Source of the DNA: Enterobacteria phage P2-EC45 | Sequence record: AJ512679.1 | Reading direction: 5' to 3' (one strand) | DNA: 1,716 nt | Shown here: positions 1 through 1,716 of the stretch, one piece after another | Position numbering within the stretch: position 1 is the stretch's first letter | Layout of the letters: each line of letters opens with the position of its first letter | The notes under the pieces: generated by a model | What the model was told of the DNA's origin: nothing | What the model saw: the letters and a program-made list of their open reading frames with translations, nothing else | Database searches by the model: none | Translations under genes and position numbers: made by a program

Positions 1-30
1 AATCCTGAATGGCCGGAAATGCCGCAATGA
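1..30 (+). CDS. 3' end of a phage tail fiber assembly protein (Tfa family, P2 gpG-like); partial, gene continues upstream of the window
   Basis: Reading frame from position 1 translates NPEWPEMPQ then TGA (28-30). A C-terminal EWPxxP-type ending is what I recall for Tfa-family proteins (lambda Tfa ends ...PDIEWPAVPVME, from memory). GC is core-like, and the gene sits upstream of a tail sheath gene as in P2. Confidence 0.55.
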   Translation, partial: NPEWPEMPQ

Positions 31-173
31 GTTTTATGAGCTTACATATCTATAGCACAAAGTAAAACCTAATCTGACAGTTCGCTCTGTGCTAGGAGCG
101 GACGTAACACATATCGCATTGGGTTGAAGAATGGTTACCACGTTGTGAAAACCACAGTAAAGATTACATGATA

Positions 174-197
174 TTGTCAACAATTTCTTGTTATAGT
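174..197 (+). promoter_or_regulatory. Candidate sigma70 promoter for the cargo ORF: -35-like TTGTCA (174-179) and extended -10 TGtTATAGT (189-197)
   Basis: TATAGT matches TATAAT at 5 of 6 positions and is preceded by TGn. The spacing to TTGTCA is only 12 bp, so the -35 assignment is doubtful. The location is about 60 nt upstream of the ORF1 start. Motif inspection only. Confidence 0.3.
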
Positions 198-246
198 ACA
201 TGCTCACAAACGTAGGTCTAAAAATTAAAACTCAAGCAATGCTATT

Positions 247-250
247 AGGA
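247..250 (+). promoter_or_regulatory. Shine-Dalgarno (AGGA) for the ORF starting at 259
   Basis: AGGA lies 8 nt upstream of ATG 259, and an in-frame TAG (256-258) sits immediately before the ATG, so 259 is the first possible start. Confidence 0.55.
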
Positions 251-258
251 ATAGATAG

Positions 259-771
259 ATGCTAAGCAAAAAAGAAAAAACAGACAAGACAGAAACTAAT
301 TCGGATAAAAAAATAGGTGTCAAAGATAAAGTAAACTGGCTTTTGTGTGGAACTATTCTGATCATGATTGCGTCATTCTGTCTTTATTTATATAAATTCC
401 ATTCACCTTTATCTAACAATCATACAAAGTGGGGAGAGTTTGGCTCATATTTTGGTGGTGTCACCGGCCCATTAGTAAGTGTAATGGCATTTATCGGACT
501 GCTCAAATCAATTAGTTTGACAAAAAAACAATTTGAAATACAAAGTCAAGAGAGTACTTTCTTTAATCTACTTACCTTTCATACTTCTAAAGTTACAAAA
601 ATATATTCTGAGACATATGGGGAGACTGATGCCTTTAAATATCTCTGTGCAAAATATAATGAAGTATATGAGTCTAGATGCATTGCCATAGCATTGGATG
701 GTATTGCAAGAAATCAACAAAACTTGCCAGAATATACGTACTATAATTTCATAAGGTATTTTTTGCCTTAG
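259..771 (+). CDS. Membrane-anchored N-terminal half of a candidate abortive-infection-like defense protein (170 aa as written; probably residues 1-169 of a ~344-aa product)
   Basis: ATG with a good SD. The N-terminus is Lys-rich (positive-inside). There are two hydrophobic segments, about residues 27-45 (WLLCGTILIMIASFCLYLY) and 61-85 (FGSYFGGVTGPLVSVMAFIGLL), predicting an N-in/C-in helical hairpin. The ORF is AT-rich and sits in a prophage cargo position. It ends at TAG 769-771, within or just after a T6G slippery tract. Confidence 0.6.
   Translation: MLSKKEKTDKTETNSDKKIGVKDKVNWLLCGTILIMIASFCLYLYKFHSPLSNNHTKWGEFGSYFGGVTGPLVSVMAFIGLLKSISLTKKQFEIQSQESTFFNLLTFHTSKVTKIYSETYGETDAFKYLCAKYNEVYESRCIAIALDGIARNQQNLPEYTYYNFIRYFLP
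759..765 (+). other. In-phase X_XXY_YYZ slippery heptamer T_TTT_TTG: candidate -1 frameshift site, or site of a 1-nt homopolymer indel
   Basis: ORF1 codons are taT (757-759), TTT (760-762) and TTG (763-765). The ORF2 reading frame is open from 747 and is the -1 frame relative to ORF1. A -1 slip here, or restoring a seventh T, gives one continuous 344-codon ORF ending at 1292. Confidence 0.45.
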
Positions 772-779
772 ATGATAAC

Positions 780-1292
780 GTGACTGTCAAAGAGATAAAA
801 TCACGGTATTCACAATATCTGGAAGAATTTGATAATAAGCAGTCAATTCTCAACGAAATAAACTTAAAGAGAAGGAATATTAAAGATCATGGTAAATTCA
901 TATTGATTGAAATAGGCCGTGATCTGGTAAGGGATATGAGTGCTGAAGAGAGAGTCAAGGTTTTAAGAAATACGTTTGATGGGTTTTATGACGAATTAGG
1001 GCATGTGTCAGGCTCATATATTAGAAATATTTACTATATACTTTCTCATGCGAATGAGTCTATTAATGGTGATAAATATGCAAAAATATTTAGAGCTCAG
1101 TTATCTCGTTATGAATTGGTCATAATTTTTCTAAATATGTTAAGTAGTTACTGCAAGCCGGACTTTGTTTACCTCATCAAGAAATTTGATATATTAAATG
1201 GACTATATATTAATGATCTATGTTACAATCCAACTAGCGAAATGTATAAAGATGATCTTAAAGATATTTACCTACATTCAGATGAAGTGTAA
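780..1292 (+). CDS. C-terminal soluble half of the same candidate defense protein (drawn as a separate 170-aa ORF; its frame is open from 747)
   Basis: The start is GTG with no recognisable SD within 20 nt. It begins 8 nt after the ORF1 stop, in the -1 frame. It has no hydrophobic segments, shares the AT-rich composition of ORF1, and ends in three consecutive stops, TAA TAA TAG (1290-1298). Confidence 0.55.
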   Translation: MTVKEIKSRYSQYLEEFDNKQSILNEINLKRRNIKDHGKFILIEIGRDLVRDMSAEERVKVLRNTFDGFYDELGHVSGSYIRNIYYILSHANESINGDKYAKIFRAQLSRYELVIIFLNMLSSYCKPDFVYLIKKFDILNGLYINDLCYNPTSEMYKDDLKDIYLHSDEV

Positions 1293-1299
1293 TAATAGG

Positions 1300-1338
1300 A
1301 ACACTCTTACTGAGTTTTTTCAGTGTTGTGTAATTTTT
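1300..1338 (+). terminator. Weak candidate intrinsic terminator after the cargo ORF
   Basis: Imperfect palindrome: AACACT (1300-1305) pairs with AGTGTT (1322-1327), or alternatively ACTGA (1309-1313) with TCAGT (1320-1324). A T5 run follows at 1334-1338. The stem is AT-rich and short, so this is marginal. Confidence 0.2.
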
Positions 1339-1396
1339 ACGCACAAGGTTTTGTTGCTTAAAAAATAAATAATACAGGATTGGTTAATGCTATTTT

Positions 1397-1426
1397 TGTC
1401 CGGCAACATGAATTGTTTGCTGGACA
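1397..1426. repeat. 10-bp inverted repeat with 10-nt spacer (TGTCCGGCAA ... TTGCTGGACA)
   Basis: Positions 1397-1406 pair with 1417-1426 at 9 of 10 Watson-Crick positions plus one G-T. No T-tract follows on either strand, so this is more likely a protein-binding dyad or RNA structure than a terminator. Confidence 0.4.
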
Positions 1427-1544
1427 GAAAGCATAAAATAAAGTACGTCACTATCTTTTCAATCAATTTTTTATTAATCCCATAAGCTCGGTAATAGTTT
1501 TTAATTTCTACAATCCGTATTTAACCTACTACTTTTGAACAGGT

Positions 1545-1557
1545 TGCAATAATTGCA
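1545..1557. repeat. Perfect 6-1-6 palindrome TGCAAT-A-ATTGCA
   Basis: Read directly from the sequence. It sits at the transition from AT-rich cargo to GC-normal core DNA, about 130 bp upstream of the FI start. Confidence 0.4.
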
Positions 1558-1565
1558 TGGACAGT

Positions 1566-1586
1566 CGGGCGAATTGCCCGCCTTTT
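1566..1586 (+). terminator. Candidate rho-independent terminator: GC stem CGGGC/GCCCG, loop GAATT, then CC-TTTT
   Basis: A 5-bp all-GC stem (1566-1570 with 1576-1580) and 5-nt loop are followed by TTTT (1583-1586). The stem is short and the T-tract is only 4 long. The element could instead belong to the FI promoter region. Confidence 0.3.
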
Positions 1587-1674
1587 CTGTATCTGTTGTT
1601 TCATCCACTGACCAGCCAGGTCAAATAGCGTCTCATGCACTGCCCAACAGAAAATAGTTGCACCCATTAACCAC

Positions 1675-1686: not shown

Positions 1687-1716
1687 ATGAGTGACTATCA
1701 TCACGGCGTGCAGGTG
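1687..1716 (+). CDS. FI: 5' end of the phage tail sheath protein gene (P2 gpFI-like); partial, continues past the window end
   Basis: The translation MSDYHHGVQV matches the N-terminus I recall for P2-family tail sheath protein FI. It has a good SD and GC-normal composition. Confidence 0.75.
   Translation, partial: MSDYHHGVQV

Follow-up and report, generated by a model that had tools for sequence, protein, structure and literature searches.

The window analysed here, 1,716 nucleotides of Enterobacteria phage P2-EC45 (AJ512679.1), is the junction between genes G and FI of a P2-like (Peduovirus) E. coli prophage. Positions 104-1558 are very probably a cargo of the hotspot at this junction that consists of a putAbiC-family gene and a dead HEPN/Toprim fragment, and whose low GC content does not point to a specific donor. 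Biologically this is an ordinary case: the hotspot is known, and the cargo is a rare new one. The G-FI slot of P2 has repeatedly been described as carrying AT-rich genes for defence or virulence; new here is a rare putAbiC-family cargo with exactly mapped junctions. The features of the window are as follows.

1-30, plus strand: 3' end of P2 gene G (tail fibre assembly protein) with the stop TGA at 28-30, from megablast against P2-like phages and 1,655 E. coli genomes and from the annotation of E. coli A5 and phage records.
31-103, plus strand: conserved P2 spacer 3' of G, about 41% GC, corresponding to the 'left inverted repeat' annotated in P2-EC67 (AJ512685).
80-103, plus strand: boundary hairpin GTTCGCT-CTGTGCTAGG-AGCGGAC at the left cargo edge (RNA fold -14.3 kcal/mol, z = -2.4).
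104-1558, plus strand: cargo block proper, delimited by homology breakpoints, with 31.4% GC and no counterpart in any other P2-like relative examined.
168-197, plus strand: candidate cargo promoter from a consensus scan, with a weak -35 (ATGATA) and an extended -10 (TGtTATAGT, 189-197).
259-1292, plus strand: putAbiC-family gene, 344 aa when intact (ORF list; Pfam PF16872), with the ribosome-binding site AGGA at 247-250.
759-764, plus strand: T6 homopolymer where the intact allele has T7; the loss of one base shifts the frame and brings in a stop at 769-771.
1387-1434, unstranded: hairpin of very high stability (RNA fold -24.1 kcal/mol, z = -6.3) that separates the putAbiC stop from the HEPN/Toprim remnant.
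1461-1558 (start approximate), minus strand: decayed 3' remnant of a HEPN/Toprim-associated gene, from tblastn, with DNA homology to 1556.
1556-1559, unstranded: right recombination or deletion junction, cargo homology reaching to 1556 and P2 homology starting from 1559.
1566-1590, plus strand: terminator-like GC hairpin (CGGGCGAATTGCCCG) followed by CCTTTTCTGT, from a terminator scan (-10.7 kcal/mol, z = -2.3).
1594-1663, plus strand: late promoter pF region, with the equivalents of the Ogr binding site at 1594-1619 and of the transcription start at 1661-1663.
1687-1716, plus strand: start of gene FI (tail sheath protein), MSDYHHGVQV, from the annotation of P2, its relatives and E. coli A5, invariant in the alignment.

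A megablast search with the window matched only its ends (1 to about 105 and 1559-1716); these matches lie in 81 phage records and in roughly 1,650 genomes of E. coli, where the annotation is tail fibre assembly (G) and tail sheath (FI). The prophage of E. coli A5, a strain 99.9% identical to the window, shows the complete P2-like gene order around the locus. The pF positions were transferred by alignment from annotated P2 (NC_001895, 17555-17583 and 17626-17628). Content of the slot varies between otherwise collinear phages, with unrelated genes in 11 relatives. The site is known as the 'Z/fun' or 'moron position 2' hotspot, at which non-essential accessory genes lie between the tail-fibre and tail-sheath operons, and the G-FI site has been named a moron or defence hotspot before (Wiles 2013, PMC3573123; Vassallo 2022, PMC9519451; Egorov 2024, bioRxiv 10.1101/2024.10.15.618418).

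Of 5,426 complete E. coli genomes, only 2 contain positions 104-1558, and a non-P2 island (L014) is 88.9% identical to the window at the nucleotide level over 79-1556. The preliminary description had proposed a horizontally acquired cargo module inside a prophage, which is borne out by these comparisons, and had set its left breakpoint at 165. The actual left breakpoint is 103/104, directly 3' of the conserved hairpin at 80-103: the spacer 31-103 shares 80-93% identity with nine relatives carrying other cargo, and this conservation stops at the terminal AGCGGAC (103). Positions 104-258 comprise the cargo's own putative promoter and its leader, which travel with the cargo in other genomes. On the right, the compositional step noticed near 1560 corresponds to a real recombination junction, as P2 homology resumes at 1559 in all 11 P2-like relatives and homology of the non-P2 cargo copy stops at 1556. 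The GC hairpin that had also been placed at this boundary belongs to the conserved P2 flank, being a terminator-like element upstream of the FI promoter; its stem (1566-1580) is conserved in 11 of 11 relatives including P2 whatever their cargo, and it is thus not a cargo boundary signal.

The 'right inverted repeat' of about 80 nt, present in 10 of the 11 relatives (partly in pro147), is missing from the window. Measured against the repeat pair of P2-EC67, the left repeat is therefore present (31-103) and the right one absent. Since this repeat pair is known from the annotation of a single record and is no formal definition, the missing right repeat marks an atypical junction and does not take the cargo out of the hotspot.

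The hairpin at 80-103 is common to P2 relatives with other cargo and to non-P2 loci with the same cargo. It belongs to a family of the form GTCCGCT-N10-AGCGGAC with two loop types that is found across Enterobacterales accessory DNA, with many copies in other islands and plasmids and 31 complete copies in Enterobacterales species genomes. A copy may stand alone, form an inverted pair with another copy around a gene, or adjoin another back-to-back between genes, and in 13 of the 31 the hairpin is followed on its 3' side by GTT, mostly as GTTGC. An Rfam scan of the window (E <= 1) returned only a chance snoRNA match, which leaves the hairpins outside known RNA families, and a full-text literature search with the hairpin sequence found no paper. 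Positions 40-110 were also considered as a dispersed high-copy repeat and rejected, as they occur at a median of one place per E. coli genome and track P2-like prophages. The 24-nt hairpin core occurs elsewhere besides P2-like prophages.

Perhaps the cargo of this slot is swapped in a cassette-like manner, through a dedicated site-specific mechanism that recognises the hairpins or inverted repeats at its flanks; the hairpin at 80-103 would then be a recombination site, and not simply a stretch of shared homology or a REP-like or terminator-like element. We regard this as a rather unlikely alternative. Similarity on the left stops directly after the hairpin in nine P2 relatives with nine different cargoes, similarity on the right stops at an inverted hairpin copy where one is present, and the same cargo in two non-P2 contexts starts at the same hairpin. 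Hairpins lie in the intergenic gaps between accessory genes of islands and plasmids, with 6-9 copies across a Yersinia island (L021), and the stem is kept with a few double-sided changes. The repeats are annotated in the GenBank record of P2-EC67, and the title of a 2004 study by Nilsson et al. (pmid 12949155) points to site-specific recombination. However, no recombinase lies consistently nearby: a 200-aa integrase seen in three loci was near 1 of 31 true hairpin copies and 1 of 89 controls, and resolvases were near none. Neither the right junction of the window nor the right end of homology to a further locus, L018 (at 1295), falls at a hairpin, and an integron-type pair of core sites and an IntI are absent. 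REP-like elements are just as typically intergenic and palindromic, and ordinary homologous recombination can start from short repeats that two sequences share.

It is unlikely, in our judgement, that the hairpin is a dedicated boundary or crossover signal for single-gene cassettes moving among P2-like phages, islands and plasmids of Enterobacterales. If it were, it would represent a cassette-exchange system distinct from integrons that is uncharacterised beyond the inverted repeats noted in 2004, and it would help to account for the movement of the same single genes among phages, islands and plasmids.

In the non-P2 island L014, a HEPN/Toprim gene is the convergent neighbour of putAbiC, and the intact gene in E. 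coli is annotated as HEPN/Toprim-associated. By tblastn the remnant aligns with residues 421-446 of the L014 protein (453 aa), 17 of 26 residues being identical, and an in-frame stop is present. A palindrome at 1544-1556, previously noted at the rise in GC near 1560, lies within this remnant and encodes AIIA; being part of a coding remnant and not palindromic in the intact L014 copy, it was rejected as a functional element. As read from the alignments, the right boundary is a truncation junction inside the HEPN/Toprim gene.

The left crossover was presumably at the shared hairpin. The right junction would be the product of an illegitimate event or a deletion within the HEPN/Toprim gene, in which the usual right inverted repeat would have been lost too. 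The block may have entered the phage from an L014-like island or, alternatively, from a larger two-gene cargo, with the truncation as the sole pointer to a transfer from island to phage. The truncated remnant indicates that imprecise events can carve hotspot cargo from larger defence islands.

The main gene of the cargo is split in the window into two ORFs (259-771 and 780-1292), and the intact coding sequence in E. coli A5 (WP_072658907.1) is annotated 'putative phage abortive infection protein'. The Pfam family PF16872 is matched with 46.1 bits by the intact protein and with 48.0 bits by the second ORF of the window, against a gathering cut-off of 22, and is carried by 29 of 29 homologues. 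Hydropathy indicates two hydrophobic helices at about 25-47 and 61-85, with peaks at about 24-47 and 64-85, and the AlphaFold model is all-helical (pLDDT 82.6) with helices at 21-47 and 55-118 followed by a helical domain. The modelled architecture of N-terminal transmembrane helices and an all-helical domain matches the description of lactococcal AbiC as a protein with two transmembrane helices and a helical domain to which no fold is assigned (PMC13064643). The gene is self-contained, and its product is anchored in the membrane and belongs to the putAbiC (AbiC/AbiP-type abortive infection) family. PADLOC-DB 2.0.0 gave no match for the cargo protein, and PADLOC none for the HEPN/Toprim protein or the 200-aa integrase; an NCBIfam search returned nothing meaningful, and in PHROGs only families of unknown function were matched. 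Neighbours of the homologues include TIR, HEPN/Toprim, AbiGi, SIR2, Qat and type I RM genes as well as prophage moron positions.

The candidate promoter region is conserved in L014 (TGTTATAAT) and L018; as the window shows no enrichment of promoter-like sites, the promoter is a consensus match only. Downstream of the gene, the hairpin at 1387-1434 was equalled in folding by none of 200 shuffles, folds on the minus strand with -15.4 kcal/mol (z = -3.9), lacks a U-tract on both strands and is conserved in L014, where the core stem has nine perfect pairs.

The T6/T7 run is the sole difference between the window and E. coli A5 across 1,716 bases. It turns the gene, which is intact in E. coli A5 and SW07099, into two 170-aa ORFs. 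With this allele the gene in the window probably has no activity, unless a sequencing error produced the T6 run; such an error is conceivable since the frameshifted 170-aa product has no record in a large assembly collection. As the copy is frameshifted, it may do nothing in this phage. When intact, the protein would be produced in the lysogen under the control of its own promoter and would serve as a prophage-encoded defence against other phages, of the abortive-infection type by analogy with lactococcal AbiC/AbiP.

Computed GC content agrees with the hand counts of the preliminary description and confirms an AT-rich block with a step change: 40.0% for 31-170, 31.2% for 165-1560, 31.4% for 259-1292 and 50.0% for 1561-1716. 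A maximum-likelihood three-segment model placed change points after 157 and 1554, with a log-likelihood ratio of 13.5 (coarse grid) that was reached by none of 200 permutations (maximum 11.9). The right step is well determined (2-log-likelihood interval 1523-1566; Fisher's test of 165-1560 against 1561-1716, p = 4e-6). The left step is weak inside the window alone (interval 101-1018; Fisher's test against 1-164, p = 0.006). The left flank in the window is short and itself 40-43% GC. The 'GC-normal' bound that had been described does not apply on the left, where gene G has 44.5% GC and the G-proximal spacer about 41%. Against the true background of E. coli A5, with 55.5% GC in the prophage core and 54.4% in the host flank, the island is unambiguous; the step is present, and the host is not near 30% GC. 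As expected of a moron in the Hendrix/Juhala sense, the cargo differs in composition from the phage DNA around it, both in overall GC (31.4% versus 55.5%) and in GC3 (27.9% for the cargo versus 63.0% in 20 prophage core genes).

The conclusion that this composition implies a low-GC donor is, however, not established, as the family is AT-rich in every host sampled and all ten different cargoes at the slot have 31-39% GC. Homologues lie at 26-33% GC, with flanking DNA in the respective hosts or islands spanning 32-53% GC, and the gene family keeps these values in hosts of 32-55% GC. A recent and direct arrival from a low-GC donor, for instance a Firmicute or a member of the Bacteroidota, whose composition the block would mirror, appears very unlikely. 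Such an origin would fit the most distant homologues (28% identity), which occur in prophages of low-GC genomes and show a small gap between gene and flank (25.8% versus 31.6% and 29.1% versus 34.1%), as well as weak tblastn homologues on Bacillus, Alistipes and Leptospira plasmids and the naming of the family after a Lactococcus system. Yet the closest relatives (83-88% amino acid and 87-89% nucleotide identity), in Morganella and in an island with flanks of 41.5% GC, are found in Enterobacterales-type contexts and are themselves 29-30% GC; homologues with 60-62% identity in Yersinia and E. coli islands still have 31-33%, and unrelated cargoes at the same hotspot are equally AT-rich. As the close homologues and those at 60-62% identity are all AT-rich, AT-richness has persisted through long divergence in gamma-proteobacterial mobile DNA. 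Caution over donor inference was likewise raised for another cargo at the same site, with a non-ameliorated AT-rich pattern (Wiles et al. 2013, PMC3573123). For the hotspot cargo described here, low GC may thus be a trait that the gene family and the cargoes of this slot keep in any host, marking no particular donor. The case is a concrete demonstration that a donor is not revealed by low GC.

That the block could instead be the phage's own low-GC intergenic or regulatory DNA, in line with the below-core GC of the P2 spacer 31-103 (41%) and gene G (44.5%), is practically inconceivable and refuted, as 104-1558 is absent from every other P2-like phage examined, where unrelated genes are found, encodes a 344-aa protein-family gene and has copies of 87-89% nucleotide identity in non-phage contexts.

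Among known systems, the hairpin family resembles integron attC sites, pdif modules and REP/BIME elements in being made up of short, imperfectly palindromic intergenic elements that separate accessory genes. An integron attC site or gene cassette was rejected, as the stem is GTCCGCT/AGCGGAC, the RYYYAAC/GTTRRRY core pair and IntI are missing, and GTTGC misfits GTTRRRY. Unlike pdif modules the family has no XerC/D-like 11-6-11 site, and unlike REP elements it has a low copy number per genome.

The cargo gene resembles the lactococcal AbiC/AbiP group in its Pfam putAbiC label (by family name), its length of about 340 aa, its two N-terminal transmembrane helices with an all-helical domain lacking a recognisable catalytic fold, and its organisation as a single-gene system on mobile DNA. 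The lactococcal AbiC/AbiP group is reportedly covered by Durmaz in 1992 and Moineau in 1993.

With P2 fun(Z), the cargo shares the same G/FI slot and conserved flanks with their left inverted repeat, terminator-like hairpin and pF promoter, and it is likewise a single AT-rich accessory gene of defence type (P2 fun(Z) has 33% GC). The fun(Z) locus and the second P2 defence hotspot are reportedly also credited to Calendar in 1998 and Nilsson in 2004. The differences from the fun(Z) locus are that the cargo gene is unrelated to fun(Z) and rare (2 of 5,426 E. coli genomes), that the usual right inverted repeat is deleted, that a second gene is left as a remnant and that the gene is frameshifted in the window.

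The neaT moron of prophage phi-b0847 in E. coli CFT073 (PMC3573123) likewise occupies this moron position as a single gene that is phyletically rare, with 29.8% GC versus about 51% in the host and with homologues that are AT-rich across phyla (PMC3573123). It differs in orientation and in product, since neaT lies in the opposite direction and encodes an acyltransferase affecting virulence (PMC3573123), whereas the cargo of the window encodes a putative abortive-infection protein.

The window is a textbook cargo in a known prophage hotspot, and this cargo consists of a rare, probably inactivated putAbiC-family gene together with a fragment of a second defence gene. The compositional island put forward in the preliminary description, its nature as cargo and its right boundary were all upheld, while the left boundary and the palindrome were not and the low-GC donor is unproven. 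Newness is low, as AT-rich hotspot cargo is already known; the boundary hairpin family is the only lead of wider interest here. The features of the window are as follows.

1-30, 3' end of P2 gene G (tail fibre assembly), stop TGA
80-103, boundary hairpin GTTCGCT-CTGTGCTAGG-AGCGGAC, last 24 bases of the conserved left flank
259-771 and 780-1292, two 170-aa ORFs, halves of one gene
1387-1434, very stable hairpin between two convergent genes (-24.1 kcal/mol, z = -6.3)
1461-1558, minus strand, decayed 3' HEPN/Toprim-associated remnant (17/26 residues identical, in-frame stop)
1566-1580, terminator-like GC hairpin followed by a T-run, conserved P2 flank
1594-1619, equivalent of the Ogr-binding site, from an annotated feature
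1661-1663, equivalent of the pF start, from an annotated feature
last 30 bases, start of FI (tail sheath), MSDYHHGVQV

Megablast of the window returned 81 phage records, including P2, Wphi, L-413C and pro147, that match at its ends only (1 to ~105 and 1559-1716), and about 1,650 of 5,426 complete E. coli genomes matched in the same way. E. coli A5 matches the entire window at 99.9% and has the full P2-like gene order around it. In P2 itself the G-FI interval is occupied by fun(Z). The site has been described as 'moron position 2', with a 29.8%-GC cargo reported there (Wiles et al. 2013, PMC3573123), and as a second defence-enriched locus of P2-like phages (Vassallo et al. 2022, PMC9519451); Egorov et al. 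have also published on this variable site. All of the ten different cargoes measured in the slot had 31-39% GC, and an AT-rich block is thus the rule rather than an anomaly at this position. The other P2 hotspot of the A5 prophage (L001 2091-5378), between the replication endonuclease and portal genes, encodes a PP2C phosphatase and two Ser/Thr kinases at 36-39% GC (GC3 about 29%), so that this prophage holds AT-rich cargo in both hotspots. The G stop codon is TGA in the window versus TAA in 9/9 aligned relatives (left-flank alignment columns 29-51, window 28-51), and a 12-nt CTCTGGTGAGAG-like segment just 3' of G occurs in some relatives and is missing from the window and the others.

The GC values previously counted by hand proved accurate on recomputation (40.0% for 31-170, ~31% for the ORF region and 50.0% for 1561-1716), with computed values of 31.2% for 165-1560 and 31.4% for 259-1292. 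A 100-nt sliding profile stayed at 26-41% across ~150-1550 and rose to 47-51% past 1551. A three-segment maximum-likelihood model placed change points after 157 and after 1554, with a likelihood gain matched by 0 of 200 permutations; the right step is tightly placed (interval 1523-1566) and the left one loosely (101-1018), given a left flank that is short and has only 40-43% GC. Against the real background of E. coli A5 (55.5% GC in the prophage core, 54.4% in neighbouring host genes; GC3 of 27.9% in the cargo vs 63.0% in 20 core prophage genes), the island is unmistakable. Since it contrasts with both, the GC step is present and the host is not itself an organism of about 30% GC (A5 flank 54.4%). 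The left side had been called GC-normal, which does not apply, as gene G has 44.5% GC and gene H 50.2%. These tail fibre genes (L001 17370-20030; GC3 41.5% in G and 47% in H) lie well under the A5 prophage core (55.5%, GC3 63%). The tail-fibre module next to the G-FI hotspot is known to be swapped, and the low GC of H and G fits such exchange.

In nine relatives with other cargo, conservation of the left flank reaches ...AGCGGAC (window 103) and is lost directly after it. From 104 onward, the sequence is common only to non-P2 loci bearing the same cargo: a metagenomic integrase island, L014 (88.9% nt identity over 79-1556), and a Morganella locus, L018 (87% over 70-1295). Thus, the left limit of 165 was too far right. 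The stretch 104-258, including a candidate extended -10 match at 189-197 kept in both loci, is part of the cargo, since it is shared only with these carriers. On the right, the match to L014 stops at 1556 and the match to P2 relatives restarts at 1559, which places the GC step at a real junction. The ~80 conserved bases 5' of 1559, annotated as 'right inverted repeat' in P2-EC67, are found in 10/11 relatives, P2 included, are only partly kept in pro147 and are wholly missing from the window. The final ~100 bases shared with L014 belong there to the 3' end of a 453-aa HEPN/Toprim gene, which is intact in that island and converges on the neighbouring putAbiC gene; E. coli 0H26 and KFu022 carry a copy (73% nt identity) beside Qat in a defence island. 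With this gene cut to a remnant and the right inverted repeat gone, the right junction would represent an imprecise truncation or deletion event, and the arrangement is probably derived from a larger, L014-like two-gene unit.

Neither element previously placed at the right boundary marks the cargo. The 'palindrome' TGCAATAATTGCA at 1544-1556 lies within the HEPN/Toprim coding remnant (AIIA) and is incidental, because its L014 counterpart is not palindromic. The GC hairpin at 1566-1580 is instead a terminator-like part of the P2 flank, found with every cargo type just 5' of the Ogr-site and pF equivalents. The hairpin at 1387-1434, kept in L014, is not a canonical terminator as it has a U-tract on neither strand; its stem starts with GTCCGG, ends with CTGGAC and resembles the boundary hairpin family.

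The boundary hairpin at 80-103 (-14.3 kcal/mol, z = -2.4) belongs to a family of the form GTCCGCT-N10-AGCGGAC; its members have one of two loop types, and GTTGC often comes next. In P2 relatives the left edge has the hairpin itself and the right edge an inverted version whose loop differs, and cargo-side similarity stops at the hairpin end on both sides. The hairpin also opens this cargo in L014 and L018 and adjoins the intact HEPN/Toprim gene in E. coli. A 21-kb Yersinia island (L021) has 6-9 copies between its genes, one of them ~280 nt upstream of the island's own putAbiC gene. Inverted pairs were found in an island of CFT073 and in plasmids of Yersinia and Klebsiella, and L024 and L026-L032 carry the family as well. 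When species-representative genomes were scanned with a 17-base core, 121 matches came up; the complete stem was present in 31, at loci among L033-L152, all in Enterobacterales genera (including Pantoea, Erwinia, Rahnella, Serratia, Enterobacter, Citrobacter and Leclercia), and the remaining 90 are chance-type matches in GC-rich genomes. The stem is maintained, with a few double-sided changes, and a double-hairpin unit with an 18-nt spacer occurs in 9/30 complete copies with enough flank. By its positions, the family marks accessory-gene edges in P2-like phages, islands and plasmids.

The hairpin could serve as a crossover site, or it could be a REP-like or an RNA-end element. Nilsson et al. 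(2004) reportedly point, by their title, to site-specific recombination at the G-FI locus. An identical 200-aa tyrosine 'site-specific integrase' (WP_001305361.1; L024 1487-2089, L026 5580-6182, L032 4801-5403) lies beside a putAbiC homologue in two loci and beside an ETEC_3214-family gene in CFT073, there between an inverted pair of hairpins. This integrase was near 1/31 true copies and 1/89 controls, giving no recombinase link. A mechanism that is site-specific throughout is disfavoured by the right junction of the window and the right end of L018 homology, both of which lie off hairpins. The features do not fit an integron attC site, no Rfam family matched, and a literature text search for the sequence found no paper.

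Low GC had also been taken to imply a low-GC donor. Gene GC was compared with own-flank GC for putAbiC homologues at seven loci.

GC content of putAbiC homologues and their flanks
A5 prophage: gene 31%, flank 53%
L014 island: gene 30%, flank 42%
Morganella: gene 29%, flank 42%
Yersinia enterocolitica: gene 33%, flank 45%
L024: gene 31%, flank 48%
Prophage of one low-GC genome: gene 26%, flank 32%
Prophage of another low-GC genome: gene 29%, flank 34%

The family is AT-rich at all loci and, in Enterobacterales mobile DNA, stays so among copies that have diverged to as little as 60% identity, and the closest relatives of this copy are in Enterobacterales-type contexts. The donor claim is therefore unproven, and the composition of this copy is uninformative as to its immediate donor, a caution also stated for neaT at the G-FI site by Wiles et al. 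(PMC3573123). The gene-flank gap is narrowest in the low-GC genomes, so the family may have a deep origin in such lineages.

The cargo is rare (2/5,426 E. coli genomes), with an about 70% identical copy in a different island in five more. Over 1,716 bases, the sole difference from the matching E. coli genomes is T6 in the window vs T7 at 759-764, and the resulting frameshift splits putAbiC into the two 170-aa ORFs; A5 and SW07099 have one uninterrupted 344-aa CDS, whose annotation reads 'putative phage abortive infection protein'. The T6 run could be a genuine inactivating mutation, homopolymer slippage or a sequencing error, and its truncated product is absent from the records of the assembly collection. 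Against Pfam putAbiC (PF16872) the intact protein scores 46.1 bits (cut-off 22), and the domain is present in 29/29 database homologues. Their neighbours include TIR, HEPN/Toprim, AbiGi, SIR2, Qat and type I RM genes, and further homologues occupy moron positions of other prophages. As PADLOC did not recognise the cargo protein, we infer a putative role in defence from the family label and this gene context. The protein has two hydrophobic helices close to its N-terminus and a confident, all-helical AlphaFold model (pLDDT 82.6), and neither sequence nor fold searches returned a solved relative. In this it is like lactococcal AbiC, which combines two TM helices with a helical domain that has neither a solved relative nor a functional assignment, and whose phenotype is a reduced production of major capsid protein (2026 review, PMC13064643).
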